From Bacillota bacterium (GTDB lineage Bacteria > Bacillota > SHA-98 > UBA4971), in NCBI GenBank assembly GCA_050261335.1, contig JBLNDE010000009.1, forward strand, positions 30,010-94,009: a stretch of DNA of 64,000 nucleotides, written 5' to 3'. The notes under the pieces were generated by a model. The model was not told the origin of the DNA, did not search any database, and saw only the letters and a list, made by a program, of their open reading frames with translations. The first letter of the stretch is position 1. The number at the start of each line of letters is the position of its first letter. The position numbers and the translations under genes are program-made. Below are positions 6,365-61,692 of the stretch, piece after piece.

Positions 6365-6370
6365 CATGTG

Positions 6371-6985: not shown

Positions 6986-7011
6986 CACCTGCCTGGGACG
7001 TTCTTGAGGTG

Positions 7012-14162: not shown

Positions 14163-14403
14163 CCCCGGCCATTTCCGCTGATCCAGCCGTTGCCGCTATT
14201 GCAGCCGCTGCGCCCGCCACGAGTGCTGTGTCCTATGTGACCGCTACGGCCGCCACGGCCGTCGCAACGGCCGAAGCGACTGCAAGAAGCCCTTCCCGGC
14301 CCGCCGAACCTCAGCACGTCAATGGAGGAAATCCAGCACGGACGGCGAATATACCTCATGGTACGTCCCGGCCCATCGAGGCACGAGTCTTTTCCGGGAG
14401 AGG

Positions 14404-15832: not shown

Positions 15833-16331
15833 CAAGCCGTGCGTCGGGCCGGGGACGCAGGGGCGCATCCCTGACGCCGCGAGGCGGGCGCGTGGACCCT
15901 GCGCCGTCATCGAGTGTTTCGAGGAGATCCCGTGCGATCCATGCCATGACGCGTGCCACCGGGGGGCCATCCGGCCGTTCGACGACATCAACCACCTTCC
16001 CGAGGTGGACTTCGACAGGTGCAACGGCTGCGGCGCCTGCATCTCAGTGTGCCCCGGCCTGGCGATTTTCGTGGTGGACGAGACCTGGAAGGATGACCTG
16101 GCGGTCGTGAGGCTGCCGTACGAGTTCCTGCCGCTGCCGTCGCCCGGTGACACCGTGGCGGGGCTTGATAGGTCCGGCCGCGAGTGCTGCGCCGCCACGG
16201 TGGTCCGGGTCGAAAGGGCGAAGAGGCAAGACAGGACGGCTGTCGTGTGGATAGAGGTGCCGAAACCCCTCTCGATGGAGATAAGGCACGTCCGTGTGGG
16301 AGGGAGCGCTATTGGCTCGCGCGAAGGCTGA
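15825..16331 (+). CDS. Ferredoxin-like 4Fe-4S subunit
   Basis: CNGCGACISVCP motif; TTG start 10 nt after AGGGAGG RBS; ORF extends to 15738. Confidence 0.55.
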   Translation: MRDKPCVGPGTQGRIPDAARRARGPCAVIECFEEIPCDPCHDACHRGAIRPFDDINHLPEVDFDRCNGCGACISVCPGLAIFVVDETWKDDLAVVRLPYEFLPLPSPGDTVAGLDRSGRECCAATVVRVERAKRQDRTAVVWIEVPKPLSMEIRHVRVGGSAIGSREG

Positions 16332-16665
16332 GTGTGAGCCCGGCGAGGGCGACCGTGGAGACGCCGCCGGCGATCCGGTGGTGATGTGCCGCTGCGAGGA
16401 CGTCACGCTCGACGAGATTCGTGACCTCATCGCAAGGGGTTACACGACGATGGAGGAGATCAAGCGCATCACGAGATGCGGCATGGGACCGTGCCAGGGC
16501 AGGACGTGCAGGCAGCTCGTGCTGGCGGAGATCGCCAGGGCCACCGGGAAAGACATCGCGAGCGTCGCCCCGCCAAGGTTCAGGCCGCCCACGAAGCCCG
16601 TGCGCCTGGGCGCGGGCGTGAGACTCGCCGCCGAGGAAGGTGATGGCCGTGAAGAGGTGCGCTGA
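16294..16665 (+). CDS. BFD-like [2Fe-2S]-binding domain protein (start may be ATG 16384)
   Basis: CRCEDVT...CGMGPCQGRTC BFD motif. Confidence 0.55.
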   Translation: MWEGALLARAKAECEPGEGDRGDAAGDPVVMCRCEDVTLDEIRDLIARGYTTMEEIKRITRCGMGPCQGRTCRQLVLAEIARATGKDIASVAPPRFRPPTKPVRLGAGVRLAAEEGDGREEVR

Positions 16666-24139: not shown

Positions 24140-24369
24140 CTCATGGCCCGTATCACACCATCGCCGCGGCCGTCCCGGCCCACATCGCAGTTCTCCTCGC
24201 TGCGAATGTATGCTAGAATTGGATTGGCCCTTCTTACGAACTATACAGCCAGGTATGGGCTCGTCGATCCCAGTCGGCTCACGAGCCGGTTCCGGGTCGG
24301 TTACCGGGGCTTGCGCCACCGGGCCTCGGCATTCGGCCGCTTGCCTGCAGGGCTGGAGAGGACGGGGCG

Positions 24370-25692
24370 ATGCGGAAGTACTTCATTCAGACCTTCGGAT
24401 GTCAGATGAACGAGCATGACTCGGAAGTGATCGCGGGAATGCTCGAGGATCGAGGCTACGTCGCGGCCCACGCGATCGATGATGCGGACCTTGTGATCTT
24501 CAACACCTGCTGTGTGCGGGAGAACCCCGAGAGGAAGGTGTACGGGCGGGCTGCGGACCTCAAGCGGCTCAAGCTGGCAAAACCCGACCTCATCATAGGA
24601 ATCTGCGGGTGCATGGTTCAACAGGAAGGCGAGGCGCAGCGCATAGCTCGAAAGCTGCCCCACGTGGATCTCGTGCTCGGCACCATGAACCTTCACCGTC
24701 TCCCGGATCTCCTGGACAGGGTCGAGGCGGGACAGAAGGCTGTCGAGGTCTGGGACGAGGAGGGCGGCATAGTCGAGGGCCTTCCCGCCCGCCGGGCCGA
24801 GGCGGTGTCCGCGTGGGTGACCATCATGTACGGCTGCGACAACTTCTGCTCATACTGCATCGTGCCCTACGTGCGGGGCCGCGAGAGAAGCCGCAGGTTC
24901 GAGGACGTAGTGGAGGAGGTCAGAGACCTCGGGAGAGCAGGCTACCGCGAGGTCGTCCTGCTCGGCCAGAACGTGAACTCGTACGGGCACGACCTCGCGG
25001 ACGGCCGCGACTTCGCCGACCTCCTGCAGGCGCTCGACGGGACTCCGGGCATATACAGGATTCGCTATACCACGAGCCACCCGAGGGACTTCTCCCAGAA
25101 GCTCATCGACACCATCGCCGCATCGAAGACCATCTGCGAGCACTTCCACCTGCCCCTTCAGGCCGGATCCGACAGGGTGCTGGCGCGCATGAACCGCGGC
25201 TACACGCAAGGGCAATACGTCGACCTCGTGCGTCGCATCCGCGAGGCCGTCCCGGGATCGTCCATCACCACCGATCTGATCGTGGGCTTCCCAGGTGAGA
25301 CAGAGGAGGACTTCCTCGAGACCCTCAAGGTGGTCCGCGAGGTGCGGTTCGATTCGGCCTTCACGTTCGTGTTCTCGCCGCGCCGCGGCACAGCTGCCGC
25401 CCGCATGAAGGACCAGGTGCCCGAGGACGTCAAGAGCGAGCGGATACAGCGGCTCATCGAAGTGCAGGAGGACATCACCGTGGAGATCAACAAGGGCCTT
25501 GCGGGCAAGGTGGTCGAGGTCCTCGTGGAGGGAGAGAGCAAGACGAGCCCCGCCATGCTGGCAGGCCGCACGCGCACGAACAAGCTCGTGGTATTCCCCC
25601 GCGACGACCGCGCCCGGAGGGGAACCCTCGTCAAGGTCAGGATCACAAAACCCCAGGCCTGGACGCAGATGGGCGAGGTGGTGGGCGCTTGA
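24370..25692 (+). CDS. miaB: tRNA-i6A37 methylthiotransferase MiaB
   Basis: TRAM + radical-SAM domains (QTFGCQMNEHDSE; CDNFCSYC). Confidence 0.9.
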   Translation: MRKYFIQTFGCQMNEHDSEVIAGMLEDRGYVAAHAIDDADLVIFNTCCVRENPERKVYGRAADLKRLKLAKPDLIIGICGCMVQQEGEAQRIARKLPHVDLVLGTMNLHRLPDLLDRVEAGQKAVEVWDEEGGIVEGLPARRAEAVSAWVTIMYGCDNFCSYCIVPYVRGRERSRRFEDVVEEVRDLGRAGYREVVLLGQNVNSYGHDLADGRDFADLLQALDGTPGIYRIRYTTSHPRDFSQKLIDTIAASKTICEHFHLPLQAGSDRVLARMNRGYTQGQYVDLVRRIREAVPGSSITTDLIVGFPGETEEDFLETLKVVREVRFDSAFTFVFSPRRGTAAARMKDQVPEDVKSERIQRLIEVQEDITVEINKGLAGKVVEVLVEGESKTSPAMLAGRTRTNKLVVFPRDDRARRGTLVKVRITKPQAWTQMGEVVGA

Positions 25693-40957: not shown

Positions 40958-41166
40958 GTGGATCGCCACAAGTTCGCGCTCCTTTTCGGCGGGTGAGTCC
41001 TGTTCAGGGTTGCCGGTGTTGCCCTCCGGGGACGGCGGGCTTGCGGCGCGCCTCGTTCGAATGTGGCGCGCGGGCTAGCCAAATTCCAGGCGCCCCGCCC
41101 TAGCAAGCACCGGCAACCCCAACACCGTCAGAGAAGATGGCGCAAACTCATGGCGCCATACCTGGA
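40954..41166 (-). repeat. MITE-like repeat, copy D (full length, inverted orientation)
   Basis: Reverse complement aligns end-to-end with copies A and E; overlaps the peptidase stop codon. Confidence 0.8.
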
Positions 41167-41278
41167 CGGCGGTCCGGACACCACCGCCATTCGCTTTCAC
41201 GGGGGTGACCGACGTTGCACTCAAGAGACGGCGCCCCGGACGAGGCGCCTCGACAGATCCCGGAAGGAGGGAACCGAC

Positions 41279-42706
41279 ATGCTTGGTGGAAGGCGTGCCC
41301 TGCCTCTCCTGATGCTCGCGGTCCTGGTGGTCGCCGCGTCAGCCGCTGCGCTCGCGCAGGATGAGAGCATCGAGGTGGGGCCTGAGCAGCAAAGGAACGT
41401 GTCGCTCACTGTGTATAGCGACAACCTTGCGCTGGTCCGTGACGAGCGCCTCGTGTCGCTTGGCGAGGGTCTCAACGTGCTGCGCTTCTCCGATGTGGCG
41501 AGGAACATCGACCCGTCGTCGGTGCGCCTTGTGTCGCTCACGGCGCCGGGGGACGTCATGCTGCTCGAGCAGAACTTCGAATACGACCTTGTGAGCAGGC
41601 AGAAGCTCCTCGAGAAGTACATAGGCAGACAGATCGAGCTCAACCGCGACGGCGTCATCCGTCCGGCAAGGCTTCTCGCGGTGGATTCCCAGGGCAAGCT
41701 CACGGTGGAGATGGACGGGAAGATCCTCCTGGACCCGCCGGGGAACGTTGAGCTTCCCGCGCTCCCGTCCGGGCTCATCCTGCGCCCGACTCTCGTGTGG
41801 TACGTGCAGGCGAAGTCGGCCGCTGAGCACGTGGCCGAGGTGAACTACCTCACCGGGGGCGTGAGCTGGCGCGCCGACTACGTCTGCGTGCTCGACGAGA
41901 AGGATAGAGCGGTGGCGCTCAACGGCTGGGTGACCCTTGACAACAGGAGTGGCGCCACGTACCGCAACGCCTCGCTCAAGCTCGTCGCAGGTGAGGTGCG
42001 GACGATCGACGCGGACATGCAACTCAAGGCCGTGCCGATGGTCTCCGGGGCTGCGCCCTCTGCGGCGTTCGAGGAAAAGCCGCTCTTCGAGTATCATTCG
42101 TACACTCTGAAGCGCCGCACGACGGTGGCCGACAACCAGCTCAAACAAATAGAGCTTCTCTCCGCCCCGAACGTGCCGGTCAAGAAGATGTATGTGTTCG
42201 AGACCCCGGGGCGCCGGTACGGCTACCAGACGTACGCAGGGAAGAAGGAGACCGGCGACGTCAAGGTGGTCATAGAGTTCGAGAACAAGGCCGGTGCGGG
42301 TCTCGGCATCCCGCTTCCCGCAGGGAAGGTGCGGGTGTACAAGGCCTCGCCCGACAAGAGCCTCGACTTCGTGGGAGAGGATGCCATCGCCCACACCCCG
42401 CGCGATGAGACCGTGCGCCTTTACGTCGGAAACGCCTTCGACCTGGTAGGCGAGCGGACCGTCACCGACTACAAGAAGATCGGGGCGAACTCGTATGAGG
42501 AGGCGTGCTGCATCAAGCTGCGGAACCACAAGGACGAGGACGTGGAGATCATGGTCATCGAGAGGTTCTACGGGGAATGGACGATTCTGAGCTGCGTCCC
42601 GCAGTCGTACCAGAAGCTCGATGCGAACACCGCCGCGTTCAAGATAAAGGTGCCCAGGGGCAAGGAAGCTGAGATCCTCTACCGGGTCCGCGTCATCGCC
42701 GACTGA
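41279..42706 (+). CDS. Secreted hypothetical protein, DUF4139-like
   Basis: Signal peptide (ALPLLMLAVLVVAASAAALA); GGAAGGAGG RBS; ORF extends into the repeat to 41063. Confidence 0.45.
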   Translation: MLGGRRALPLLMLAVLVVAASAAALAQDESIEVGPEQQRNVSLTVYSDNLALVRDERLVSLGEGLNVLRFSDVARNIDPSSVRLVSLTAPGDVMLLEQNFEYDLVSRQKLLEKYIGRQIELNRDGVIRPARLLAVDSQGKLTVEMDGKILLDPPGNVELPALPSGLILRPTLVWYVQAKSAAEHVAEVNYLTGGVSWRADYVCVLDEKDRAVALNGWVTLDNRSGATYRNASLKLVAGEVRTIDADMQLKAVPMVSGAAPSAAFEEKPLFEYHSYTLKRRTTVADNQLKQIELLSAPNVPVKKMYVFETPGRRYGYQTYAGKKETGDVKVVIEFENKAGAGLGIPLPAGKVRVYKASPDKSLDFVGEDAIAHTPRDETVRLYVGNAFDLVGERTVTDYKKIGANSYEEACCIKLRNHKDEDVEIMVIERFYGEWTILSCVPQSYQKLDANTAAFKIKVPRGKEAEILYRVRVIAD

Positions 42707-42772
42707 CTCGGCAAATACCATAGTAGCGGACGTAACGGTGCAAGGCGTGAAAGTCAAGGCGCTGGCTTACAG

Positions 42773-43057
42773 ATGCCGGACGCTGGAAGTAAGCTCAATC
42801 AGGGAGGGATGGCTGTGGCCTGCTATCTGATTGACGACATCGAGGGGTTCCGGCAGAGTATCGTGGGCACCGTCATAGTAGACGTGGACATCCGCACCAG
42901 CGAGGCACGACCGCAGGACCCAGGATACTGGGAGGAGGTGCTCATCACCCTCGACTCCGGGTATGTCATCCAGTTCTTCGGCACGTTCTCGGAGGAGTTC
43001 AAGCAAAGGCACCAGATTGGGCAAACACCGCGCGGCGCTGACGGCGATTACCACTGA
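42773..43057 (+). CDS. Hypothetical small protein
   Basis: 94 aa ORF; alternative ATG at 42809. Confidence 0.3.
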   Translation: MPDAGSKLNQGGMAVACYLIDDIEGFRQSIVGTVIVDVDIRTSEARPQDPGYWEEVLITLDSGYVIQFFGTFSEEFKQRHQIGQTPRGADGDYH

Positions 43058-43390: not shown

Positions 43391-44257
43391 GTGATGGAAG
43401 CGAAGCCGAAACCAGCGGGCGATCTTCTCGGAGAAGGCGACTACTGCGTCATCGAACGCACATTCCCGGCCGTCTATGTGTCACCACCTGGCGGGCACGA
43501 GAGTCTCCGTCGTAGCCTGCGGCTTCTGCGCGGCATCGGCCCCAAGACCGAGGAGAAGCTTAAGGCCCAGGGGTACCACGATCTCGCCTGCCTGGTCAGG
43601 CACACCCGCTGGGGCCAGGCGGCGTGCACCGTGCTCGCGGCGATAGAGGGAGGCGACGCAGAACTTCTTGCCAGGTGCGGGGCGTCGGACCTCGACCTCC
43701 TCTGTTTCTATCCTGTGACTCGCATGGCATTCATCGACATAGAGACCACCGGGCTGTACAGCACCCAGCCGCTCTTCCTCGTGGGAATCATGGGATTTCG
43801 CGACGATGGAAACATGGTGCTTCGACAGTTCCTGGCCAGGTCCTACGAGGAGGAGGCCGCGGTGCTCGCCGCGGTGCGTGACGAATTCGACAGGTTCGAG
43901 GTGGTGACGACCTACAACGGCCGCAGGTTCGATCTGCCGTACATACGCGACCGCATGGCGTATTATGGCATCGAGTGCAGTTCGTGCACGTTCCACCTGG
44001 ACCTCCTGAGGACCGCGCGACGGCTCCTCCGGGGTGTCCTGCCTGATTGTCGGCTGGTGACGGTGGCAGAGCATCTCCTTGGCTACGAGCGCCGCGGGGA
44101 CATCCCCAGCGCGATGATTCCCGAGGTATACCACGAGTTCGTGAGAAGCCGCAACCCCGCTCTCATACGCCCGGTCCTCGAGCACAATGCGATGGACCTT
44201 CACGCGCTTGCGCTGATCCTCGAGAACATACTCGGCCGGGCGGCCGAGCAAGGCTGA
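43391..44257 (+). CDS. RNase H-fold 3'-5' exonuclease-like protein (YprB family) with N-terminal HhH
   Basis: [15 protein letters not shown] HhH; FIDIETTGL exonuclease motif I. Confidence 0.55.
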
Positions 44258-44331
44258 CAGGGCATCAGCGTGCTGCCGCATCTGCCAGATTCACAGCATG
44301 GAGGGACGAGCTGTTGGACGAGACAAGAATC

Positions 44332-44877
44332 ATGAACGCCGTCAGAGAGATTATCGAGGCCATCGGAGAGGATCCGGACCGTGAGGGACTTCGCGAGACG
44401 CCGCGCAGGATCGCGAGGATGTACGAGGAGATATTCTGCGGCATCGGCAAGGACCCCCGCGACCTCCTCGCTCCGGTCTTCAATGAGCACCATGAGGAAA
44501 TGGTCATCATCAAGGACATACCATTCTATTCCATGTGCGAGCATCATCTGCTGCCCTTCCACGGCAAGGCCCACGTGGCCTACCTGCCCAAGGGCGGCCG
44601 CGTCGTGGGTCTGAGCAAGCTCGCGCGGGTGGTCGAGACCGTCGCCAGGCGCCCACAGCTCCAAGAGAGGCTCACGAGCGAGGTCGCCGACATGATCGAT
44701 GAGGCGCTCAAGCCGCATGGAGTCGTGGTGGTCATCGAAGCCGAGCACATGTGCATGTCGATGCGCGGGGTGACCAAGCCGGGCAGCATCGCCGTGACCT
44801 CGGCCGTAAGGGGCCTGTTCCGCAAGGACGTTGCCGCCAGGGCCGAGGCGTTCTCCCTCATCAAGGGTCAGCCGTAG
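44332..44877 (+). CDS. folE: GTP cyclohydrolase I
   Basis: FolE core ([22 protein letters not shown]); ORF extends to 44047. Confidence 0.9.
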
Positions 44878-45027
44878 CTCCGGCGCGCGCAGGGTTCGTC
44901 CGGCAGGCCCCGCCCTGGGCGCTGACCTAGCTGCGGGCTTGCCAGGCGCAGGTGGGCGACAGGGTGCGCTGTGGGTACTCCCGACGTCCGCGCGCCAGTG
45001 TGTCCGTCCACGATTTTCGAAGCCTGG

Positions 45028-45058
45028 GTAATAATCGCTCCCTCCGCTCATATACATT
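45028..45058 (+). promoter_or_regulatory. Candidate sigma-E-type forespore-coat promoter for spoIVA
   Basis: ATAAT ... 13 nt ... CATATACA resembles the sigma-E -35 ATATT / -10 CATACA-T consensus. Confidence 0.3.
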
Positions 45059-45103
45059 ATTCTGAAAGCCGGGTGTGACCCGGTGCCGGGGGAGGGAGCC
45101 GGT

Positions 45104-46582
45104 ATGGAGACGTTCGACATCTTCCAGGACATCGCCACGAGGACCAACGGCGATATCTACATCGGAGTGGTCGGACCGGTCAGAACGGGAAAGTCCACGT
45201 TCATCAAGCGGTTCATGGACCTCCTGGTCCTCCCGAACATATCTGACATGTACGACAAGCAGCGCTCAGTGGATGAACTCCCGCAGAGCGGCGGCGGCAG
45301 GACCATCATGACCACCGAACCCAAGTTCGTGCCCAGCGAGGCCGTGCAAGTCGAGATCGAGGACAACGTCAAGGTCCGAGTGAGGCTCGTCGACTGTGTG
45401 GGCTACACGGTCAGGGGAGCGCTGGGCTACGAGGACGACGCGGGCCCGAGGATGGTCGTCACGCCGTGGTTCGATTACGAGATCCCGTTCGAGGACGCAG
45501 CGGAGTTCGGCACGCGGAAGGTGATAACGGACCACTCCACCATCGGCCTGGTGGTTCTGACCGATGGCTCGATTACGGAGATCCCGAGAGAGAACTACGT
45601 GCCGGCGGAAGAGCGGGTCATCGAGGAGCTTCGACAGCTTCACAAGCCGTTCGTGGCGGTCCTCAACTCGGTCGCGCCGTGGTCGAGGGAGGCCCAGGAC
45701 CTCGCGTCCCAGCTGGCCGCGAAGTACCAGGTGCCGGTCATCCCTCTCGATTGCATGCGGATGGGTGTCGAGGACGTCAAGGGCGTCCTGCGCGAGGTGC
45801 TCTACGAGTTCCCGGTCCGCGAAGTGAGCGTGAGGCTGCCGGTCTGGTTGAGCGAACTCGGCGGGGATCACTGGTTACGGCAGAGGTTCCATGAGGCCGT
45901 GGTCGGTACGGTCAAGGAGGTCAAGAGGATACGCGACATCCACGGAGTCGCCGACAGGCTCTCCGGAGAGGAGTTCGTATCCGGAGCCGACCTCACGACA
46001 ATGGAGCTTGGCACCGGGACAGTGGCAATCGATCTCGAGGCGCCGCGCAGCCTCTTCTTCCAGGTGGTCCAGGAGGTGAGCGGGCTCGAGGTGGAGGGCG
46101 ACCATCACCTGCTGCGACTCATGAAGGAGCTTTCCGTAGCGAAGAAAGAATACGACAAGATCGCCGACGGTCTGCAGGATGCACGCGAACTTGGATACGG
46201 GATTGTCATGCCGCTCCTGGATGAACTCACTTTCGAGGAGCCGGAGCTCATACGACAGGGCAGCCGGTTCGGCGTGAGGCTCAAGGCGTCGGCGCCGTCC
46301 ATCCACATGATCCGGGCGAACATCGAGACGGAGGTCACCACGAACGTAGGGACGGAGAGGCAGGGCGAGGAGCTCGTCAGGAGGCTGTCCGAGGAGTTCG
46401 AGAAGGACCCGGACCGCATCTGGAATACCGACTTCCTCGGGAAGTCCCTGCACGAGCTGGTGAAAGAGGGGATCGAGAGCAAGCTGTATCGAATGCCCGA
46501 GAACGCGCAACAGAAGCTTCAGGAGACCCTCCAGAAGATCGTCAACGAGGGAAGCGGCGGTCTCATCTGCATAATCCTGTGA
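45104..46582 (+). CDS. spoIVA: Stage IV sporulation protein A
   Basis: METFDIFQDIATRTNGDIYIGVVGPVRTGKSTFIKRFMDLLVLPNI. Confidence 0.9.
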   Translation: METFDIFQDIATRTNGDIYIGVVGPVRTGKSTFIKRFMDLLVLPNISDMYDKQRSVDELPQSGGGRTIMTTEPKFVPSEAVQVEIEDNVKVRVRLVDCVGYTVRGALGYEDDAGPRMVVTPWFDYEIPFEDAAEFGTRKVITDHSTIGLVVLTDGSITEIPRENYVPAEERVIEELRQLHKPFVAVLNSVAPWSREAQDLASQLAAKYQVPVIPLDCMRMGVEDVKGVLREVLYEFPVREVSVRLPVWLSELGGDHWLRQRFHEAVVGTVKEVKRIRDIHGVADRLSGEEFVSGADLTTMELGTGTVAIDLEAPRSLFFQVVQEVSGLEVEGDHHLLRLMKELSVAKKEYDKIADGLQDARELGYGIVMPLLDELTFEEPELIRQGSRFGVRLKASAPSIHMIRANIETEVTTNVGTERQGEELVRRLSEEFEKDPDRIWNTDFLGKSLHELVKEGIESKLYRMPENAQQKLQETLQKIVNEGSGGLICIIL

Positions 46583-52849: not shown

Positions 52850-52922
52850 AGATTGAGACGTGAATAAATGGAGGTGCCGGCGCGGAGGTCCTGCGCAAAG
52901 GCGGGGCTTCCGCGCCGAAGGT

Positions 52923-53828
52923 ATGGCTTTATTCATAGAGCAACTCGTCAACGGTCTTACCGTGGGCGCGGTGTACGCGCTGGTTGCACTCGGTTATACG
53001 ATGGTCTACGGCGTGATGAGGCTCATCAACTTCGCCCACGGCGATCTCTTCATGCTTGGCTCGTATTTCGGCTTCACTTTGCTGGTTGCAACGTTCGTGG
53101 GCAGCGCCCTGCCTCTGTGGGCGGCGCTGCTGGTGACCGTGCTCGCGTCAGCGGCTGGGGTTGCCATCCTCGGGGTGCTCGTGGAGCGCGCCGCTTATCG
53201 TCCTCTTCGTCGCTCGAACCGCCTGACCGCGGTCGTGTCCGCCATGGGCGTCTCGATATTCCTGCAAAACGCAGCCATGCTTGTCTGGGGCCCGCGTTAC
53301 CGGGCGTATCCTCCGTGGGCCGTCCCTGACGTGAGGTGGGAGATCGGGGCCGTCCACATAGGCTTCATGCAGGTGCTCATCCTGATGGTGTCCATCCTGC
53401 TCATGGCCGGCCTGTACCTGTTCGTCCAGCGCACGACGGTAGGCGCGGCCATCCGCGCCACGGCCATCGACCACGACACCGCGAGGCTCATGGGAATCAA
53501 CGTCGATCAGATCATCCGGCTGATTTTCGTCATCGGCCCTGGCCTCGGTGCTGTGGCGGGCGTGCTGCTGGGGCTGTATTATCGGCAGATCCACTTCACG
53601 GTCGGGTGGTCATATGGCCTGAAGGCCTTCACTGCCGCAATCCTCGGGGGGATCGGGAACATTCCAGGGGCCATGGTTGGGGGCCTGCTGCTCGGCATAC
53701 TGGAGATGCTCGGAGGCGGGTATATCTCTGCGGCGTGGAAAGACGTGTTCGTGTTCCTTATCCTGATTCTGCTGCTGATTTTCCGGCCCACCGGCCTATT
53801 GGGCGAACGCGTCGCCGAAAAGGTTTAG
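52923..53828 (+). CDS. livH: BCAA ABC transporter permease
   Basis: MALFIEQLVNGLTVGAVYALVALGYTMVYG typical LivH N-terminus. Confidence 0.85.
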   Translation: MALFIEQLVNGLTVGAVYALVALGYTMVYGVMRLINFAHGDLFMLGSYFGFTLLVATFVGSALPLWAALLVTVLASAAGVAILGVLVERAAYRPLRRSNRLTAVVSAMGVSIFLQNAAMLVWGPRYRAYPPWAVPDVRWEIGAVHIGFMQVLILMVSILLMAGLYLFVQRTTVGAAIRATAIDHDTARLMGINVDQIIRLIFVIGPGLGAVAGVLLGLYYRQIHFTVGWSYGLKAFTAAILGGIGNIPGAMVGGLLLGILEMLGGGYISAAWKDVFVFLILILLLIFRPTGLLGERVAEKV

Positions 53829-53976
53829 GGCGAGGTCGCGATTGCGAGCGCTGGGTGCGGCCCTGGTAGGTTCATCGGGACGGAGCAGGAAAGGGGCAGG
53901 AAGGGCAGGAGAAGGGTAAGAGGGAGGCAGCGGCCCTGGCGGTTTTCGCAGCTCGAGTAGGAGAGGAGTGTAGCAT

Positions 53977-54981
53977 GTGGCATCGCCGCGTCTCGGACCC
54001 GGGCTTGTACCGGGACGCCGTATATCCGGACTTGTCGACCGCTACTCGGCCTGGGCGGTCGCAGCCATTGGTGTAGCTGCGTTGGTCTTCCCGATGGTCA
54101 CAAGCGACTACTGGATCGACGTCGCCGTTTTCTGGGGCATTTACGTGCTCCTCGGCCTCAGCCTGAACATCATCGTGGGCGAAGTGGGCCTGTTCGACAT
54201 GGGGCACATGGCATTCTTCGCGATTGGGGCATACACGACCGCTATCCTCAGCGGGCAACTTGGGGTCTCGCTATGGCTACTCCTGCCGCTGAGCGGAGTT
54301 GCAGCCGGGCTTGCGGGCTACGCGCTCGCGCGTCCGATCATCCACCTTCGGGGCGACTACCTCCTCATCGTGACGATAGGCCTCAACGAAATGACCCGCA
54401 TCAGCCTCCTCAACAACCCGTGGGGCCTCACGGGCGGTCCGAACGGCGTCATCATGCTGGACCAGTTTCGCATCCTCGGCCTTACGATACAAAGGCCGAT
54501 ACACTTCTACTACCTCGTCTGGGTGTTCGTCGCGGCGAGCATGTTCGCCCTCGTGCGCCTGCAGCGCTCCCGGATCGGCCGTGCGTGGAACTATATCCGC
54601 GAGGACGAGGTGGCGGCCGAGGCCATGGGCATAGACGTACGCGCGGCCAAGCTCCTGGCGTTCACGCTGGGCGCGGGGCTTGCGGGCGCGACCGGAACCA
54701 TATTCGCCGCCAAGCTGGTGGTCATATCGCCCGAGAGCTTCACGTTCATGGAGTCGGTGATCCTGTTCTGCATCGTGGTGCTGGGAGGCATGGGATCGAT
54801 CCCCGGCGTGGTCCTGGGGTCCGCGGCCATGCTGGTGCTGCCCGAGATCCTGCGGAACTTCGCACAGTACCGGATGCTCTTCTTCGGCGCCGCCATGGTG
54901 CTCATGATGATCTTCCGCCCGCAGGGGCTGTGGCCCAGCAGGCGCTGGACGACCAAGCTGCAGGAAGGCGAGGGTGAGTGA
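53977..54981 (+). CDS. livM: BCAA ABC transporter permease
   Basis: LivM family TM protein; GTG start after GAGAGGAG RBS. Confidence 0.8.
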   Translation: MASPRLGPGLVPGRRISGLVDRYSAWAVAAIGVAALVFPMVTSDYWIDVAVFWGIYVLLGLSLNIIVGEVGLFDMGHMAFFAIGAYTTAILSGQLGVSLWLLLPLSGVAAGLAGYALARPIIHLRGDYLLIVTIGLNEMTRISLLNNPWGLTGGPNGVIMLDQFRILGLTIQRPIHFYYLVWVFVAASMFALVRLQRSRIGRAWNYIREDEVAAEAMGIDVRAAKLLAFTLGAGLAGATGTIFAAKLVVISPESFTFMESVILFCIVVLGGMGSIPGVVLGSAAMLVLPEILRNFAQYRMLFFGAAMVLMMIFRPQGLWPSRRWTTKLQEGEGE

Positions 54982-55961
54982 CGATGTGCGCGGGCAACGC
55001 GAGCAACGGGGTCCTCCTCGAGTTGAGGGGGGTAAGCAAGCGATTCGGCGGGCTCCGCGCTGTAGACGCCTTCGACCTCGATGTGTGCGAGGGCAGCATC
55101 ACGAGCCTCATCGGCCCGAACGGCGCCGGCAAGACGACCGTGTTCAACCTCATCACGGGCATCTACCGGCCGGACACAGGCAGCATCAGGTTCGCGGCGC
55201 GGGAGATCGTCGGCAAGCTGCCACACCAGGTCGCGGAGGCGGGCATCGCGCGCACCTTCCAGACGCTGCGACTTTTCGAAAACCTCACGTGCTTCGAGAA
55301 TGTGCTGGCAGGCCAGCACTGCAGGGGCCTGGCCGGGGTGGCGGCGTCCATTTTCAGGACAGCGGGCCAGCGCAGGGAGGAGGAGCGCATGAGAGGCGAG
55401 GCGGAGCGCTGCCTGCGGCAGATGGGCCTGTGGGCGTGCCGCGACGAGCTTGCGCGCAACCTTCCGTACGGCAACCGGAGGCGCCTCGAGATAGCGCGGG
55501 CCCTCGCCACGCGACCGCGTCTTCTGATCCTCGACGAGCCAGCCGGCGGCCTGAACGAGGAGGAAACGGCCGGCCTCATGGATCTCATCCAGGAGATCAG
55601 AGGGTCGGGGATCACTGTCTTCCTCATCGAGCACGATATGCAGGTGGTCATGGGAGTATCCGACCTCGTTGCCGTTATGGACAACGGGCAGAAGATCAGC
55701 GAGGGCACCCCTGATGAGGTCCAGCAGGATCCGCGCGTGATCGAGGCGTACCTGGGCACCGACGACGAATCCGACGAGCTGGGCGAATACGACGTAGCCC
55801 ATGGGATAAGCGATTCCTCTGCGACAGGTGAAGCCGGCGCGGCCGGCGGGTCCGGCGGCACCGGCAAGGCCAACGACACCGGCGAGGCCGACGGCGGCGC
55901 GTGTGCCGGGGGCACCGGCGATCCTGGGCGAGCAAGGATGGATTTGCATGAGCCTGCTTGA
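54978..55961 (+). CDS. livG: BCAA ABC transporter ATP-binding protein with a Gly-rich C-terminal tail
   Basis: Walker A GPNGAGKTT, LivG-specific insert. Confidence 0.85.
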   Translation: MTMCAGNASNGVLLELRGVSKRFGGLRAVDAFDLDVCEGSITSLIGPNGAGKTTVFNLITGIYRPDTGSIRFAAREIVGKLPHQVAEAGIARTFQTLRLFENLTCFENVLAGQHCRGLAGVAASIFRTAGQRREEERMRGEAERCLRQMGLWACRDELARNLPYGNRRRLEIARALATRPRLLILDEPAGGLNEEETAGLMDLIQEIRGSGITVFLIEHDMQVVMGVSDLVAVMDNGQKISEGTPDEVQQDPRVIEAYLGTDDESDELGEYDVAHGISDSSATGEAGAAGGSGGTGKANDTGEADGGACAGGTGDPGRARMDLHEPA

Positions 55962-56730
55962 GCTTGATGACGTTCACATCTCATACGGAAACGTCCGGGC
56001 CGTAGAAGGCGTCAGCGTCGCCGTGGAAGAGGGAGAGATCGTGACGCTCCTCGGCGCCAACGGCGCGGGCAAGACCACGACGCTACGGGCCGTCTCGGGC
56101 CTCCTGCGACCGCGCGCCGGGCGCATCCGCCTGGCGGGCCAGGAGATTCAGGCGGCGGCAGCGCACAGGATAGTGGAACTCGGGGTCGCACACGTGCCAG
56201 AGGGGCGCCGGGTTTTCGCAACACTTACGGTCGAGGAGAATCTCAACCTCGGGGCCTACAAATACCGGCGGGACGCGACGCGGGTGAGGGAGGGGCGCGG
56301 GCGCGCATACCGGCTTTTCCCGAGGCTCGCCGAGCGCCGCGGCCAGCTCGCCGGCACATTGTCCGGCGGCGAACAACAGATGCTCGCCATCGCCCGCGGG
56401 CTTATGGCCGACCCGAGAGTGCTGCTCCTGGATGAGCCCTCGCTCGGCCTTGCGCCCAAGCTGGTGCAGGAGATCTTCCACACGATCCGGGAGATCAACC
56501 GGGAGGGCGTGACCATCCTGCTGGTGGAGCAGAACGCCAGAATAGCCTTGCGCGTGGCGCACAGAGCGTATGTGCTGGAGACAGGGAGGATCGTGCTCGC
56601 CGGCCCTTCGCGCGAGCTGCGACAGGACCCCAGGATCCAGCAGGCGTATCTCGGGATGGGGCGCAAGCCCGGCGCAGGTCGCCGGTCCGCGCAGGCAGGG
56701 CAGGGAAGCGCCGCCGTGGCGTCATCGTAA
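55948..56730 (+). CDS. livF: BCAA ABC transporter ATP-binding protein
   Basis: Walker A GANGAGKTT, signature LSGGEQQML. Confidence 0.85.
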   Translation: MSLLELDDVHISYGNVRAVEGVSVAVEEGEIVTLLGANGAGKTTTLRAVSGLLRPRAGRIRLAGQEIQAAAAHRIVELGVAHVPEGRRVFATLTVEENLNLGAYKYRRDATRVREGRGRAYRLFPRLAERRGQLAGTLSGGEQQMLAIARGLMADPRVLLLDEPSLGLAPKLVQEIFHTIREINREGVTILLVEQNARIALRVAHRAYVLETGRIVLAGPSRELRQDPRIQQAYLGMGRKPGAGRRSAQAGQGSAAVASS

Positions 56731-57954: not shown

Positions 57955-58177
57955 GCGTTCATCAGCTCCATTGCGTCGTCCAACTCGCAAGCGCTCTCAA
58001 TAGGCGCTCTCAAGGGGAGTATTCCCCCTTGGGGCCGCGATCCTGGGGCGAAAATCCTCGACCCGCGAAGAGGAATTTGATAGAAAATGTAGAATCATTT
58101 TGGGACACCGGTGGAGTACACTTACGGTGCCACAATCCGGTCGTTCCTGATTGTCTATGCCGGGAGGGGGGTGGACC

Positions 58178-59959
58178 ATGGGGGAGCGTCCACGGGTCCC
58201 TGGCGGTCAGAAGTCGCGACGCCCTGCGGAGTGGGACAAGCCGTGTCCTGGGGGACGTACACCCGACGCACGTGCTGAGAGGGGCGTTGCCTTCATCACC
58301 GTCCTCATCGCCGTCTCGTTCGTGTCCATCATTGTCATCGCATGCACAACCCTGGTCACCACAGCCGCGCGCACAGGTTCATGGTCCCTCGAGCGCACAA
58401 AGGCCCTCTACGCCGCGGAGGCCGGTATCAATCACTGGCTCTTCGAGGCGTCGATCGAGGAGAGCGGCGCTCCTCATCAGCACGGCCGAGGGCACGGCCA
58501 GGGCCAGCACAACGAAGGTGACGGATATGGCCATAGACATCGGCACGGTCAGGGTCAGGGTCAGGGTCAGGGTGGCGGGCACGGCACGTCTGAGATCGCA
58601 ACCATCGAGGTCAGCGGCGTGGTCAACGGTGTAGCATACATCGCGGGCGTCACTACGGGTGAGGGCGGCTCCAGCGGCACGTATCGCATCGTGTCTACCG
58701 CCGCGGCGCCTTCCCGTAGTACCGTAGTGTCACTGGAGGCAGGAACAGTGCCGGAGGCATGGCGGCATGTGGTGTACGCGTCAAGCACACCCGGGTCGCT
58801 CGACAGCCTCCTGCGCGGTCTTTTGAACTTGTTCGGAATTCCAGTGTATGACCTCTCAGGCACCACGCCGACAGTTGGCCAACTCTTCGGCCCAGTGTTG
58901 TTCCCGTGGGAAGGTAGAGACTCCTACGCCCCGAGTCTCGTCGACTCGGGCTGGGGAAGCTATCGTAGTACTGTCGCCCCTGAGATCGCCTACTGGAACC
59001 CGCCGTGTTTCGCGCAGGAAGTGACGGCAGACGTCCTCAACCCGGCAGGCGCTGGTCCCTTCTACTACAGAAACAGCGTTATAGGGACAATCGAGGGACC
59101 GGTCGACGGAGACCTGTACCTGGAAGACTGCGCGGTGGGGACTATCTCGGGACCGGTAAACGGTGGGATCTTCATCAGGAACACCAGGAAAAGCGCTGGA
59201 GTCGGGCGGATTGCCGGCGAGGTCAAAGGATCCATATGCATCGACTCGTCACAGAGAAGATTCGATAAGGAGGACATGTCATATCGTTCCACCCAGATCG
59301 GGGCTTCCGACTCCCGCTGCGTAGTAGGGGGTTCGGTCTATCTTAAAGGACGAGTCGAGACCCGGGGATTCCTGTGGTGGACATGGAAAACGAAGCCTGA
59401 CGTATTGGCGGTCTGCGGTCCAACAGCAACCGCAGGAGGCCCGACCGAGATCGCCGGGGGGGTGTTCGCAGAAGACGCGTCCATCTACGTCGGGGGAAAC
59501 GCGGAGATATCGCGCAGGCCAGGGACAGCGTTGCCAGCGGTTCTTTCAGACGGGTCGGTGGTATTGAACGGAGGCCCGGGCCCGATCCACCTGTCGGGGC
59601 CGGTATATTCCGCGGCTACGGTGTCCGGTTCCCTGAGCAACCTCGTTGCTTCGGCTCTGGTTGACGCCGGATTCCCCACAGGCTTCGCGGAACAGATAGG
59701 CGGCATAACCGTCGATGTGGCGAAATGGCTCGGATTCGATTTCGGTCTCATCGTGGCGGGCGATCCCGACGGAGGAAACTCCAACAGGGTCACGATTTCG
59801 GGGAACCTGGTGACTCCCGGGATGCCACTGCTGCTAGGCAGGCTTGCAGCCAACTACGATAGATCCCTTCTCGATCCCGCCAACCAGCCGCCCCACTTTA
59901 CGGGAGGCAGGCAGATCCTCGCGCCGATACGCGGCACCTGGGCTGTAGCTCGTAACTGA
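58178..59959 (+). CDS. Large PilX/GspK-like minor pilin with His/Gly/Gln-rich repeat tract and Gly-rich C-terminal region
   Basis: PilX_N-type hydrophobic N-terminus without Glu+5 (RGVAFITVLIAVSFV) followed by ALYAAEAGINHWL; GGGAGGGGGG RBS; ORF extends to 58151. Confidence 0.55.
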   Translation: MGERPRVPGGQKSRRPAEWDKPCPGGRTPDARAERGVAFITVLIAVSFVSIIVIACTTLVTTAARTGSWSLERTKALYAAEAGINHWLFEASIEESGAPHQHGRGHGQGQHNEGDGYGHRHRHGQGQGQGQGGGHGTSEIATIEVSGVVNGVAYIAGVTTGEGGSSGTYRIVSTAAAPSRSTVVSLEAGTVPEAWRHVVYASSTPGSLDSLLRGLLNLFGIPVYDLSGTTPTVGQLFGPVLFPWEGRDSYAPSLVDSGWGSYRSTVAPEIAYWNPPCFAQEVTADVLNPAGAGPFYYRNSVIGTIEGPVDGDLYLEDCAVGTISGPVNGGIFIRNTRKSAGVGRIAGEVKGSICIDSSQRRFDKEDMSYRSTQIGASDSRCVVGGSVYLKGRVETRGFLWWTWKTKPDVLAVCGPTATAGGPTEIAGGVFAEDASIYVGGNAEISRRPGTALPAVLSDGSVVLNGGPGPIHLSGPVYSAATVSGSLSNLVASALVDAGFPTGFAEQIGGITVDVAKWLGFDFGLIVAGDPDGGNSNRVTISGNLVTPGMPLLLGRLAANYDRSLLDPANQPPHFTGGRQILAPIRGTWAVARN

Positions 59960-59987
59960 CTTGCGAGAGGCAACGGGGGAATAGAGC

Positions 59988-60458
59988 TTGCTCAACCGCA
60001 GTTGTCTGGACAAGAGACAGGAGAGACGCGGGCCAGCACGGCACTTCTGTCGGCCAATCGGCAGCAGCAGGGGCTTCTCGCTCGTTGAGGTGCTCGTAGC
60101 GCTTCTTCTCGTAGCGATTCTTCTCGTGCCTGCCATGTCGAGCATTGCGTCTATGGTCACGACCGTAGCAAGAAGGAGCGCGGACGCACAGGCGCTTGAG
60201 CTTGCCCGCAGCACCCTTGAGGCAATCAAGGCCCTTGATGCTGGTTCCTTTTCGACGGATCCCGTCCCGCCGGTCACGGTGACCACGGCAGATGGGCGGA
60301 TGTCTTTCGACGTAGAGCGCGTGATGCGCGTGCGTGACGAGGATCCCAGTAACCCCGCCAGCAAGCTGTGGGAAGTGACCGTCTCTGTGTATGAACACCC
60401 GATGTCAGACGGCGCCACGCCGCTGTGTTCTCTGACGACGTTCGTGTGTCCACAATGA
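59988..60458 (+). CDS. Prepilin-type N-terminal cleavage/methylation domain protein (pseudopilin)
   Basis: G|FSLVEVLVALLLVAILL class-III signal motif; TTG start. Confidence 0.6.
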   Translation: MLNRSCLDKRQERRGPARHFCRPIGSSRGFSLVEVLVALLLVAILLVPAMSSIASMVTTVARRSADAQALELARSTLEAIKALDAGSFSTDPVPPVTVTTADGRMSFDVERVMRVRDEDPSNPASKLWEVTVSVYEHPMSDGATPLCSLTTFVCPQ

Positions 60459-60483
60459 CCTGCTGCGGAGGGACGCAAAGCCC

Positions 60484-61029
60484 GTGGAAACGCGCATGAA
60501 GCCATACCACCGAATGCCCGGCCAGAACGCTGGCTTCACACTGGTTGAAGTCCTCGTCGTCCTCGCGATAGTTCCTCTGGTACTCGCGATTACCTTCAGC
60601 GCCGTCTCCGTCGCTCTCCGAGGGTACAGGCTCGTTGAGGCGCGGTCCGCCCTGGCCTCCGGTGGGATGGTGGTAATAGAGACGCTCGGGCAGGATCTTC
60701 GAGGTGTGAGAGAGATCTACGACGACTCGTCTCAAACGCGCTTTCATGGACGCCAGCAAGATGGCGTCACGGATGTAGTCTACGAATTCGCGCCGCCGGG
60801 CGGGTCGGCGCCGGGCGCCCTCAGCCGGAACGGCGCGCAGCTCTTTGGGTCCGACACACACGTGACCTCATGCGAGTTCACCTATCTTGCGCCTGGCCCC
60901 GACCCGGAAGACCCCCTTCAAGAGGTGAACGATGTCAGAAGCGCGTCATCCATCAAGGTGCGCCTTGCGATAGAGCGCAAGTCCTCCTCCATGACCTTCG
61001 AATCGGTCTTCGATCTCAGAAACCTCTAA
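60484..61029 (+). CDS. Prepilin-type N-terminal cleavage/methylation domain protein (pseudopilin); start may be the ATG at 60514
   Basis: MPGQNAG|FTLVEVLVVLAIV motif. Confidence 0.6.
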   Translation: METRMKPYHRMPGQNAGFTLVEVLVVLAIVPLVLAITFSAVSVALRGYRLVEARSALASGGMVVIETLGQDLRGVREIYDDSSQTRFHGRQQDGVTDVVYEFAPPGGSAPGALSRNGAQLFGSDTHVTSCEFTYLAPGPDPEDPLQEVNDVRSASSIKVRLAIERKSSSMTFESVFDLRNL

Positions 61030-61060
61030 ACGTTAGAGAAATCTAATCGTGGTCTAACCG
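61030..61060 (+). promoter_or_regulatory. Conserved 31-bp motif, copy 1 (TTAGAG-N3-TCTAAT-N5-TCTAACCG)
   Basis: 22/31 identical to a second copy at 63881-63911; contains direct repeat TCTAAT/TCTAAC at 11-bp spacing and an inverted TTAGAG. Confidence 0.5.
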
Positions 61061-61166
61061 ACGCTTCACCTCCCCGGGCTAAACTCAGAATCGGCAGGAG
61101 GGGATGGCACCGCTGACGGGAGCCGTCCCGCCCGCCGGATTTGACCCGGAAGGAGGTGATACTCCA

Positions 61167-61508
61167 ATGTCACGCCATGCAAAGCTCCTCGCCGTGGTCT
61201 TCGCAATAAGCCTCGCGATTGCAACCTCCATCTACGCGTACGCGCAGTCCGCAGGCGGCGCAGACAACACGGTCGCAACTCCCCAAGAGACAACGCAGGT
61301 AACCGCCTGGGATGCGTCCGGCAGCGGCACCCAGGTTGGGGCCGATGACGAGGCTACCGGATCTCAGGAGACAGTCGAGTCCGAATCCGAGGCCGAGGTC
61401 GAGGCTGAAGAGTCGGAAGCTGCTGAGGCAGCAAATGACCCGGTGGAGGCGCCCGGGACTCCCGGCTATGAGGAAGGCAACTTCGACGGACAGCACGAGT
61501 TCAAGTAA
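61167..61508 (+). CDS. Secreted acidic low-complexity protein (Asp/Glu/Thr/Ser-rich)
   Basis: Signal peptide MSRHAKLLAVVFAISLAIATSIYAYA; AGGAGGTGA RBS; ORF extends to 61104. Confidence 0.55.
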   Translation: MSRHAKLLAVVFAISLAIATSIYAYAQSAGGADNTVATPQETTQVTAWDASGSGTQVGADDEATGSQETVESESEAEVEAEESEAAEAANDPVEAPGTPGYEEGNFDGQHEFK

Positions 61509-61692
61509 AGCCGACAGCGCATTGCGCCAAGACAACGAACGGGCAACCTAGCCCGGGTCGCGGCGGGTCTATTCTGGACAGGTTCGGGCGACGCGGTGCG
61601 GTGCTCCGGCGCCCCTTCGGGGCGCCCGGGGCACCTCGTCGTCTGAGTTGAGAGCCTGGAGTGCTGACACCCGGTTGCGACCCTCGCCAGAC

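Follow-up and report, generated by a model that had tools for sequence, protein, structure and literature searches.

Three consecutive genes for pilin-like proteins (A, B and C), followed by a gene for a small secreted protein (D), raise the question of what such proteins could build, and with which machinery, in a region where no pilus assembly genes are found beside them. The stretch of DNA analysed (the window) is 64 kb long and comes from a spore-forming Bacillota bacterium, whose SpoIVA shares about 63-67% identity with those of Limnochordia, Thermincola and Phosphitispora. A preliminary description had listed the open reading frames of the pilin locus, and all are present as described. 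The features of the locus are collected in Table 1.

Table 1 Features of the pilin locus, in window coordinates.
Feature	Position	Strand	Remarks
Sigma-H-type promoter, AGAGGAATT - 11 nt - GTAGAAT	58069..58095	+	~83 nt 5' of the gene A start codon
Gene A, PilX/GspK/ComZ-class minor pilin with beta-helix	58178..59959	+	593 aa; proposed tip subunit
Gene A leader peptide, aa 1-36	58178..58285	+	ends at invariant Gly36, the predicted prepilin-peptidase site; Thr at +5
His/Gly/Gln/Arg-rich tract of gene A, aa 101-137	58478..58588	+	loop from N-terminal helix to first beta-strand; predicted disordered
Perfect GGTCAG x4.5 tandem repeat	58547..58573	+	encodes (GQ)n in the tract; Tandem Repeats Finder, 100% matches, score 54
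Gene A beta-helix (beta-solenoid) domain, aa ~283-480	59024..59617	+	most confidently predicted part of the model
Gene B, 156-aa prepilin, SSRG|FSLVE	59988..60458	+	probably GspI/PilV/ComGE class
Gene C, 181-aa prepilin, QNAG|FTLVE	60484..61029	+	GspJ/PilW/TTHA1219 class
Gene D, 113-aa secreted acidic protein	61167..61508	+	ATG 61167

An orphan cassette of pilin-class genes

The intergenic gaps are only 28 nt between A and B and 25 nt between B and C, and the A-B-C order is kept in 12 of 13 species-level genomes of 48-63% GC, the exception being a contig that breaks off directly after A. The same order is found in metagenome contigs, and gene B is present in all cassette loci whose sequence reaches beyond gene A. 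Codon GC bias gave 58 ORF calls in the 64 kb, and a Pfam search with 54 of them found no T2SSE, T2SSF, Peptidase_A24 or PilM/N/O; the other four ORFs lie at 52857-56730, positions that match the Liv ABC transporter genes of syntenic relatives. In addition, no T2SSE Walker motifs occur in any of the six frames of the window, and neither pilus assembly machinery nor a major pilin was seen in the window or within 10 kb on either side of any related cassette locus. Both scans of the window agree with the earlier statement that it holds no pilus ATPase, platform protein or prepilin peptidase. The cassette also contains no fourth minor pilin of the GspH/FimU class. The A-B-C set is an orphan and presumably serves machinery encoded elsewhere, and we retain the earlier view of its products as accessory or tip pilins, a location at the tip being the best reading.

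We regarded as type IV prepilins those proteins with Gly at -1, Phe at +1 and Glu at +5, then a hydrophobic helix, and a score above the curated cut-off. B and C, the only proteins with class-III signal motifs in the 64-kb window, score 29.8 and 25.4 bits against N_methyl (PF07963; cut-off 21.2), and 25.2 and 28.1 bits against TIGR02532 (cut-off 16.3), which bears out their description as prepilins. For gene B, TTG 59988 is the sole in-frame start ahead of the prepilin motif. Among 11 gene B orthologs, 10 match PilV, 8 ComGE and 8 GspI, all below cut-off and mostly over the N-terminus; judged by this N-terminal similarity, B probably belongs to the GspI/PilV/ComGE class. Gene C reaches only 11.5 bits against the gspJ model TIGR01711 (cut-off 64.85), and its structure prediction, built on an alignment of database homologs, has a GspJ fold with GspJ, XcpW and EpsJ as the closest structural classes. 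Sequence searches of B and C against the PDB matched the N-terminal helix and nothing further. A Verru_Chthon cassette (TIGR02600, TIGR02599 and TIGR02596 for proteins A, C and D) was considered and rejected, the scores being 10.4, 19.4 and 20.6 bits against cut-offs of 332, 256 and 70.

The pilin-like N-terminus and beta-helix of gene A

The longest ORF of gene A spans 58151-59959 (602 aa from TTG), and we adopted the ATG at 58178, which is kept in homologs and called in a public contig. The N-terminus reads ...AERG|VAFITVLIAV. Across the aligned homologs, Gly at -1 (G36) is invariant, position +5 is Thr or Ser in all and never Glu, and I40, L43 and V46 as well as the AAEAGINHW box are invariant. 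A prepilin-like N-terminus without Glu+5, here ERG|VAFIT, is a feature of GspK. The assignment of A to the PilX/GspK class of minor pilins stands, with both the N-terminus lacking Glu+5 and the AEAG box confirmed. The proposed check against PilX_N (PF14341) gave a mixed outcome: 11 of 13 gene A family members match at E < 0.01 (best E 2.1e-7), but the window protein, although matched over the full model (positions 1-51), scores 21.1 bits, below the Pfam gathering cut-off of 25.5. Against the GspK model NF037980, gene A scores 15.5 bits (cut-off 130) over the N-terminal 51 residues only. This score, the beta-helix nature of the insertion and the lack of gsp genes in the window do not fit GspK proper. 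The close family is tiny: a cut at E 1e-30 leaves 7 clusters out of 1.84 billion representatives.

The predicted model of gene A comprises a helix (33-96), strands (143-192), the beta-helix (283-480) and terminal strands (579-592), an order that fits a ComZ-like solenoid inserted between the penultimate and the last pilin strand. According to this prediction, what had been described as a long Gly-rich region is the beta-helix domain and not low-complexity sequence. When the gene A family profile was searched against PDB sequences, the top match was ComZ (6qvi_A; E 0.0015, 20.1 bits), with profile positions 68-184 aligned to ComZ 12-128. Foldseek also ranked ComZ first for the model, at a weak E of 0.02 and a TM of 0.15-0.17, and returned no PDB match at E 0.001 or better. 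The beta-helix resembles generic right-handed helices more than ComZ or ice-binding-type solenoids, and its nearest folds come from adhesins and from proteins that bind carbohydrates or resemble lyases. No catalytic residues were identified in gene A.

The tract between the N-terminal helix and the first strand, HQHGRGHGQGQHNEGDGYGHRHRHGQGQGQGQGGGHG, overlaps the GGTCAG repeat, and pLDDT falls below 50 at aa 101-117 and 121-137. The His-rich tract noted earlier is real, and the GGTCAG repeats encode part of it. It occurs in variable form in 10 of 13 gene A homologs and is missing in the 3 most distant. Slippage variation in the repeat was considered and rejected, as the tract length is unchanged in a 99%-identical public variant. 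His-rich sequences frequently bind Ni, Zn or Cu, and the loop may, speculatively, add pH- or metal-dependent binding to gene A. In the alignment, a Gly-rich stretch of ComZ faces the tract, and the disordered loop of gene A is placed where the long helix-to-strand loop of ComZ lies, which touches DNA in a docking model (PMC6561018).

A likely tip complex and the competing readings

The region upstream of gene A carries a conserved promoter-like element. AGGA and GTAGAA are invariant in an alignment of 8 loci, and low-GC cassette loci have the equivalent GCAGGAAAG - 11 nt - GTAGAAA. The window contains two occurrences of the pattern AGGAWWW-N11-12-RNNGAAT, with 0.05 expected. Of the 16 positions of the Listeria sigma-H consensus RMAGGRWWW-N11-12-RRMGAAW, the gene A element agrees with 14, and it has the same -10 as the promoter of L. 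innocua comGA (PMC4754846). It is kept in 16 related loci; in one unaligned locus (L015), the regular expression found no match upstream of A. Promoters of this type drive the comG and comE competence operons in Listeria (PMC4754846), and we infer sigma-H as the factor for gene A. A sigma-70 promoter scan found none, and terminator matches were at chance level. A riboswitch upstream of A (for c-di-GMP, for example, as at Clostridioides pilA1) was rejected, since Rfam gave no hit even with E values up to 1 allowed.

We consider it likely that A, B and C form one operon encoding a complex that tips or primes a type IV filament, with a ComZ-like beta-solenoid as its cap. Either a type IV pilus or a competence pilus could be meant, and genes elsewhere in the genome would supply its ATPase, platform protein, prepilin peptidase and major pilin. 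Against this reading, no assembly machinery was seen in the window or within 10 kb of the related loci, the cassette lacks a GspH/FimU-class minor pilin, and all family matches of gene A are weak (PilX_N, ComZ and Foldseek alike). Transcription would start from the conserved promoter, presumably through sigma-H, and the kinship with the Listeria comG and comE promoters points to expression as cells enter stationary phase, become competent or begin to sporulate. The three proteins would then enter the membrane via the hydrophobic helices seen at their N-termini, B and C with the full G|F-x-x-x-E motif for putative cleavage and methylation, A with only the Gly at -1. The lack of Glu+5 would mark A as the first, topmost subunit of the GspK/PilX class, since there is no subunit above it to pair with. 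In a manner comparable to the GspK-GspI-GspJ trimer, A (K-like), B (I-like) and C (J-like) may bundle through these helices, nucleate the filament and remain at its tip, as their fold classes and conserved gene order suggest. The roughly 200-residue beta-helix of A would be too bulky for the shaft and would cap the tip, in line with the argument made for Thermus ComZ and for PilX of cyanobacteria, acting as plug and ligand-binding surface.

As to the ligand, the nearest beta-helix folds make an adhesin for a surface or polysaccharide a reasonable candidate, at somewhat less than an even chance; DNA, suggested by the ComZ analogy and the competence-type promoter, is a slightly less probable one, and other ligands take the remaining probability. 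We think it unlikely that the cassette goes further and provides a sigma-H-timed alternative priming complex that re-tips a shared type IV machine, with the loop serving as a ligand clamp switched by pH or metal, the ligand being DNA or a mineral or metal surface. Such re-tipping would coincide with entry into stationary phase or sporulation in this lineage of spore-forming Bacillota, which branches deeply, and, if true, the arrangement would be a new means of tuning what pilus tips bind.

The preliminary description had counted gene D as part of the locus, and one competing reading is a four-gene module A-B-C-D in which a DNA motif common to both would put the cassette under the adjacent two-component system and the His tract would make it a metal-interaction device; we hold it to be improbable. 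D is indeed secreted and strongly acidic, having a Sec-type signal peptide (...AYA|QS) and a mature part with 22 acidic residues and 1 basic residue (pI 4.05). D, the response regulator and the kinase directly follow the cassette in the window and in the closest relatives, and the module could further draw on the tract outline kept in most homologs and on the general tendency of His-rich sequences to bind metal. Yet D is lacking in the more distant cassettes, as is the adjacent two-component system, and an opposite-strand Uma2 gene separates C from D in one locus (L021). D is also far more conserved than A-C, with an identity of 73-89% in genomes whose gene A reaches only ~40-68%, and has a conserved upstream region of its own (~140 nt, 80% mean identity). 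A repeat search of the regions upstream of A and of the regulator found in common only a Shine-Dalgarno-like GGAGG and short chance pairs, and the proposed control by a shared motif is not supported; the His tract, moreover, is missing in 3 of 13 homologs that retain the cassette. D is always accompanied by the downstream regulator and kinase, and the genes 3' of the kinase (PAP2 phosphatase, DedA/VTT) suggest an envelope regulon. Judged by these patterns, D probably stands outside the pilin cassette, as does the two-component system, and travels with the regulator and kinase. In the alignable loci, the element kept upstream of A is the sigma-H-type promoter rather than the two-component motif proposed earlier.

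Two further readings concern the filament itself. The cassette might cap a pseudopilus like those of type II secretion or Com systems, a short structure in the periplasm or across the wall instead of an extended surface pilus, which would act as a piston or conduit for secretion or DNA passage and not for adhesion. The proximity of gene C to GspJ, XcpW and EpsJ, the weak GspK and GspI matches of A and B, the presence of ComGE among the best matches of B, and a distant relative (P0020) in an operon with a T2SSG-type major pseudopilin all speak for it. However, proteins of the same K/I/J fold classes are found at the tips of true type IV pili as well (PilX, PilV, PilW; ComZ), and a bulky, adhesin-like beta-helix suits an exposed tip better, so that a pseudopilus appears unlikely to us. 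Less probable still is a filament-independent A, a membrane-anchored beta-helix enzyme or adhesin (lyase-like, for example, on an uncleaved signal anchor), with B and C as leftovers or accessories. G|F-x-x-x-E is intact in B and C of genomes whose A proteins have fallen to about 30% identity, a pattern that makes sense only if processing by prepilin peptidase and assembly into filaments are selected for; C has the GspJ fold, A retains Gly-1 and the AEAG box, and no catalytic residues were identified.

Comparison with known pilin sets

The tip complex that we favour has relatives at several distances. In the GspK-GspI-GspJ tip complex (PDB 3ci0), the GspK insertion is alpha-helical, whereas that of gene A is a beta-helix; moreover, the gene order here is K-I-J, in contrast to H-I-J-K in type II secretion, and there is no secretion operon. 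A wider superfamily combining PilX_N and a beta-helix (with P0020, P0025, P0043 and P0056 among its members) shares with gene A the N-terminus, the AEAG box, PEAF/PEAW, the beta-helix repeats and a C-terminal NYD...PPP-F-GG...W motif, but at very low identity, and the long leader of 36 aa is confined to the gene A clade, as is the His-rich loop. Some of these members match Pfam Ice_binding or DUF7305. P0020 occupies the GspK position after two small prepilins in a full filament operon (secretin, T2SSE, T2SSF, T2SSG, then PilM/N/O), and P0023 heads a further orphan three-gene cassette in an unrelated genome. Together with this cassette, A-B-C would suggest, if our reading holds, that orphan K-I-J sets are a recurring way to fit one machine with a specialised tip. 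The practical value lies mainly in annotation, as gene A-type proteins and their partners are now labelled 'hypothetical' or generically 'prepilin-type'. The conserved sigma-H-type promoter would provide a concrete, testable link between the tip complex and a competence or sporulation-entry programme.

The main elements of the cassette are precedented, and it opens no long-standing question; the 'novel tip-adhesin module' of the preliminary description is accordingly not novel in design. A pilin joined to a beta-solenoid has been described for ComZ of the Thermus thermophilus competence pilus (PDB 6qvi), whose system includes PilA2 and the TTHA1219 pilin (PMC6561018), and in cyanobacterial PilX a bulky beta-solenoid separates the penultimate strand from the last (bioRxiv 10.64898/2026.02.12.705559). 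If our reading is right, this design reaches uncultured spore-forming Bacillota. Similarity between ComZ and gene A is only marginal, the hosts are Thermus and a spore-forming Bacillota bacterium, respectively, and, compared with the ComZ system, the A-B-C cassette does not lie beside a major pilin, its His-rich loop is clade-specific and DNA binding is putative. The PilX-PilV-PilW-FimT sets of cyanobacteria often form one locus apart from the machinery, and alternative minor pilin sets there prime different filaments on a single machine (bioRxiv 10.64898/2026.02.12.705559). Likened by their published description, and allowing for the other phylum and for only three genes here with no FimT/GspH-class member, these sets appear to be the best model for the orphan A-B-C cassette.

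Layout of the locus and gene content of the window

The ORF list of the window shows four plus-strand ORFs in succession, the first three corresponding to the A-B-C cassette and the last to gene D (see table). The start of gene A is conserved and is also the one called in a public contig, and the gene encodes a His/Gly-rich tract containing a perfect hexanucleotide repeat. Genes B and C score above the curated cut-offs of prepilin N-terminal models and are the only ones in the window with class-III signal motifs. Codon-position GC bias yielded 58 ORFs in the window, 54 of which were compared with Pfam. Neither a pilus ATPase, a platform protein, a prepilin peptidase nor PilM/N/O was found among these 54, and no T2SSE Walker motifs were detected by a six-frame scan of the window, whose gene content is housekeeping (accB/accC, asp23, nusB, xseA, polyprenyl synthetase, dxs, recN, mutS/mutL, miaA, hfq, spoIVA, HU and a Liv-type ABC transporter). 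The ORF list, the Pfam comparison with the prepilin model scores, and the negative machinery scans therefore confirm the preliminary description of the locus: its ORFs, tract, prepilins and secreted acidic protein, and the machinery missing from the window.

Coordinates of features in the window and in related loci
Feature	Location	Strand	Remarks
Sigma-H-type element	58069-58095	+	AGAGGAATT - 11 nt - GTAGAAT; intergenic, upstream of gene A
Gene A	ORF 58151-59959	+	start ATG 58178; 593 aa
Repeat in gene A	58547-58573		GGTCAG x4.5
Gene B	ORF 59988-60458	+
Repeat in gene B	60093-60127	+	15-nt tandem, CTCGTAGCG[C/A]TTCTT, 2.3 copies
Gene C	ORF 60484-61029	+
Gene D	ORF 61104-61508	+	most likely start ATG 61167, behind ribosome-binding site GGAGGTGA
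Hairpin	61608-61627	+	GGCGCCCC-TTCG-GGGGCGCC
Second sigma-H-type match	14326-14350	+	AGGAAAT-N11-GGCGAAT
OLE RNA	6366-7004	+	Rfam RF01071, 452.9 bits, model positions 1-616
ORF after OLE	~6979-7671		without Pfam match
Adjacent ORFs	40997-42706, 42707-43057	+	569 and 116 codons, stop to stop
ORFs without Pfam match	15665-16402, 24301-24849, 44200-45156	-
P0023 cassette	L026 10001-12751; L027 3815-6565		562, 161 and ~190-198 aa
Gas-vesicle cluster	L020 192-4377		GvpA, F/L, G, K, O
Double-GAF-domain gene	L023 3324-4373		ends exactly at gene A start

Elsewhere in the window, a full-length OLE (Ornate Large Extremophilic) RNA lies between the polyprenyl synthetase gene and an ORF followed by dxs, the usual genomic setting of this RNA; the ORF possibly encodes an OLE-associated protein. 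Two adjacent ORFs of strong coding-type GC3 bias also lack a Pfam match, as do three on the minus strand.

Putative promoter of gene A and probable affiliation of gene D

Of the 16 positions of the Listeria sigma-H consensus, 14 are matched by the element upstream of gene A. In an alignment of this region from eight loci whose flanks are otherwise divergent, AGGA and GTAGAA show no variation; at the equivalent position, the low-GC loci with the cassette have GCAGGAAAG - 11 nt - GTAGAAA. The window contains two matches to the pattern AGGAWWW-N11-12-RNNGAAT, where shuffling predicts 0.05; the second match is located 3' of recN, immediately ahead of Fer2_4 and Pyr_redox_2 genes. In Listeria, comG, comE and coiA are under the control of sigma-H promoters, and the -10 element of L. 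innocua comGA is identical to that of gene A (PMC4754846). No sigma-70-like promoter was found, nor was a riboswitch upstream of gene A. From the sequence pattern we infer that sigma-H would be the factor recognizing this promoter.

Gene D encodes a Sec-type signal peptide, a mature part with 22 acidic residues versus 1 basic residue, and a nearly invariant C-terminus (...NDPVEAPGTPGYEEGNFDGQHEFK). Identity of D across genomes is 73-89%, compared with only about 40-68% for A in the same genomes, and D is missing from the distant cassettes. In one related locus (L021), an opposite-strand Uma2 gene separates C from D, and D still lies ahead of the response regulator; in relatives, a PAP2 phosphatase and a DedA/VTT protein are encoded downstream of the kinase. 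These observations place gene D with the two-component system rather than with the pilins, probably in an envelope-related regulon. D is invariably found ahead of the OmpR-type regulator and kinase and so may be a target of this system or a partner to it. Gene D and its upstream region occupy 61025-61508; the ~140 nt ahead of the gene show 80% conservation and hold TTA/TAA elements ~11 nt apart, a spacing that would suit an OmpR-family regulator. A perfect GC-rich hairpin without a T-run lies 100 nt past the stop codon of D; it could terminate transcription between D and the response regulator gene or serve there as a processing site.

The earlier interpretation is supported in part: a putative minor-pilin tip set serving machinery elsewhere remains the best reading. 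Membership of D in the pilin locus was not supported, as D is absent from distant cassettes, can be split from C and keeps its place before the regulator; a DNA motif shared by the cassette and the two-component system was not found.

Distribution of the cassette

The family of gene A is small: only 14 relatives were present among 5.8 billion clustered proteins, and when 1.84 billion representatives were searched exhaustively with a profile, 7 clusters fell below E 1e-30. A scan with one genome per species placed the family in 13 genomes, all uncultured Bacillota bins with a GC content of 48%-63%. Bins with the cassette include GCA_012842395.1, JASEJE01 and JAAYXB01. A B-like and then a C-like prepilin follow A in every locus whose sequence reaches past gene A, and no assembly genes occur within 10 kb in any related cassette locus. 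SpoIVA of the window groups with spore-forming Bacillota, with Limnochordia, Thermincola and Phosphitispora only about 63-67% identical. One gene A match is labelled 'Betaproteobacteria bacterium', and the 99% twin of the window's own gene A 'Bacteroidota bacterium' (L006 = JBLNCC010000059.1 and protein P0001); judging from gene content (SpoIVA, Bacillota synteny), both labels are probably wrong. In another locus, whose gene A is 43% identical, a gas-vesicle cluster lies just upstream of the Liv transporter. In the most distant cassette found via protein P0014, the double-GAF gene abutting gene A hints that the cassette of this lineage is tied to other regulation.

Distant relatives of gene A share its N-terminus, a PEAF/PEAW motif, beta-helix repeats and a C-terminal NYD...PPP-F-GG...W motif, and some match Pfam Ice_binding or DUF7305. 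One of them, P0020, is encoded in a complete operon after a T2SSG-type pilin and two small prepilins, with a secretin, MshEN/T2SSE ATPase and T2SSF platform upstream and PilM/N/O downstream, the place that a K-class subunit would take. Another PilX-like protein, P0023, is encoded by the first gene of an orphan three-gene cassette arranged like A-B-C in what appears to be a different, unrelated lineage; orphan K-I-J-like cassettes may therefore recur widely. The P0023 genome also encodes an N_methyl + SBP_bac_10 protein.

A putative filament-tip complex

The N-terminus of gene A is of the PilX/GspK type, with Gly36 invariant ahead of the hydrophobic helix, Thr or Ser rather than Glu at +5, and an AEAG box invariant in the family alignment; PilX_N was matched in 11 of 13 family members, the window protein falling under the Pfam threshold. 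Its AlphaFold2 model (mean pLDDT 77, pTM 0.75) comprises a long N-terminal helix (33-96), a disordered loop (101-137), four strands (143-192), a beta-helix (~283-480, block-mean pLDDT mostly >90), two helices and terminal strands (579-592). The putative insertion topology is read only from this order of secondary structure. The His/Gly loop, disordered in the model, is clade-specific and variable in the alignment, and may bind metal. The best solved relative of the family profile is Thermus thermophilus ComZ (6qvi; E 0.0015, region after the helix), whose Gly-rich stretch aligns with the His/Gly tract; this presumed link is weak in both sequence and fold. Gene B orthologs consistently match PilV, ComGE and GspI, all below threshold, and its assignment to this class is provisional. 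The tandem repeat in gene B, which encodes part of the hydrophobic N-terminal helix, is probably incidental.

On the most economical reading, A-B-C would resemble GspK/GspI/GspJ and form the tip of a type IV filament, or the complex that primes it, with gene A as the topmost subunit and its beta-helix capping the tip; the motor of this filament would be encoded elsewhere. DNA is suggested as a ligand by the analogy with ComZ and the competence-type promoter, and a polysaccharide or surface by the nearest folds of the modelled beta-helix. In cyanobacteria, a single machine makes different filaments, each primed by a core minor pilin set of its own (bioRxiv 10.64898/2026.02.12.705559). The tip design proposed here for gene A has been described for ComZ, whose solenoid was argued not to fit into the shaft for steric reasons (PMC6561018), and for cyanobacterial PilX, whose solenoid was proposed as a tip plug (bioRxiv 10.64898/2026.02.12.705559). 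Like these two proteins, gene A would carry a beta-helix or solenoid at the filament tip, a place that we propose for it from sequence and model.
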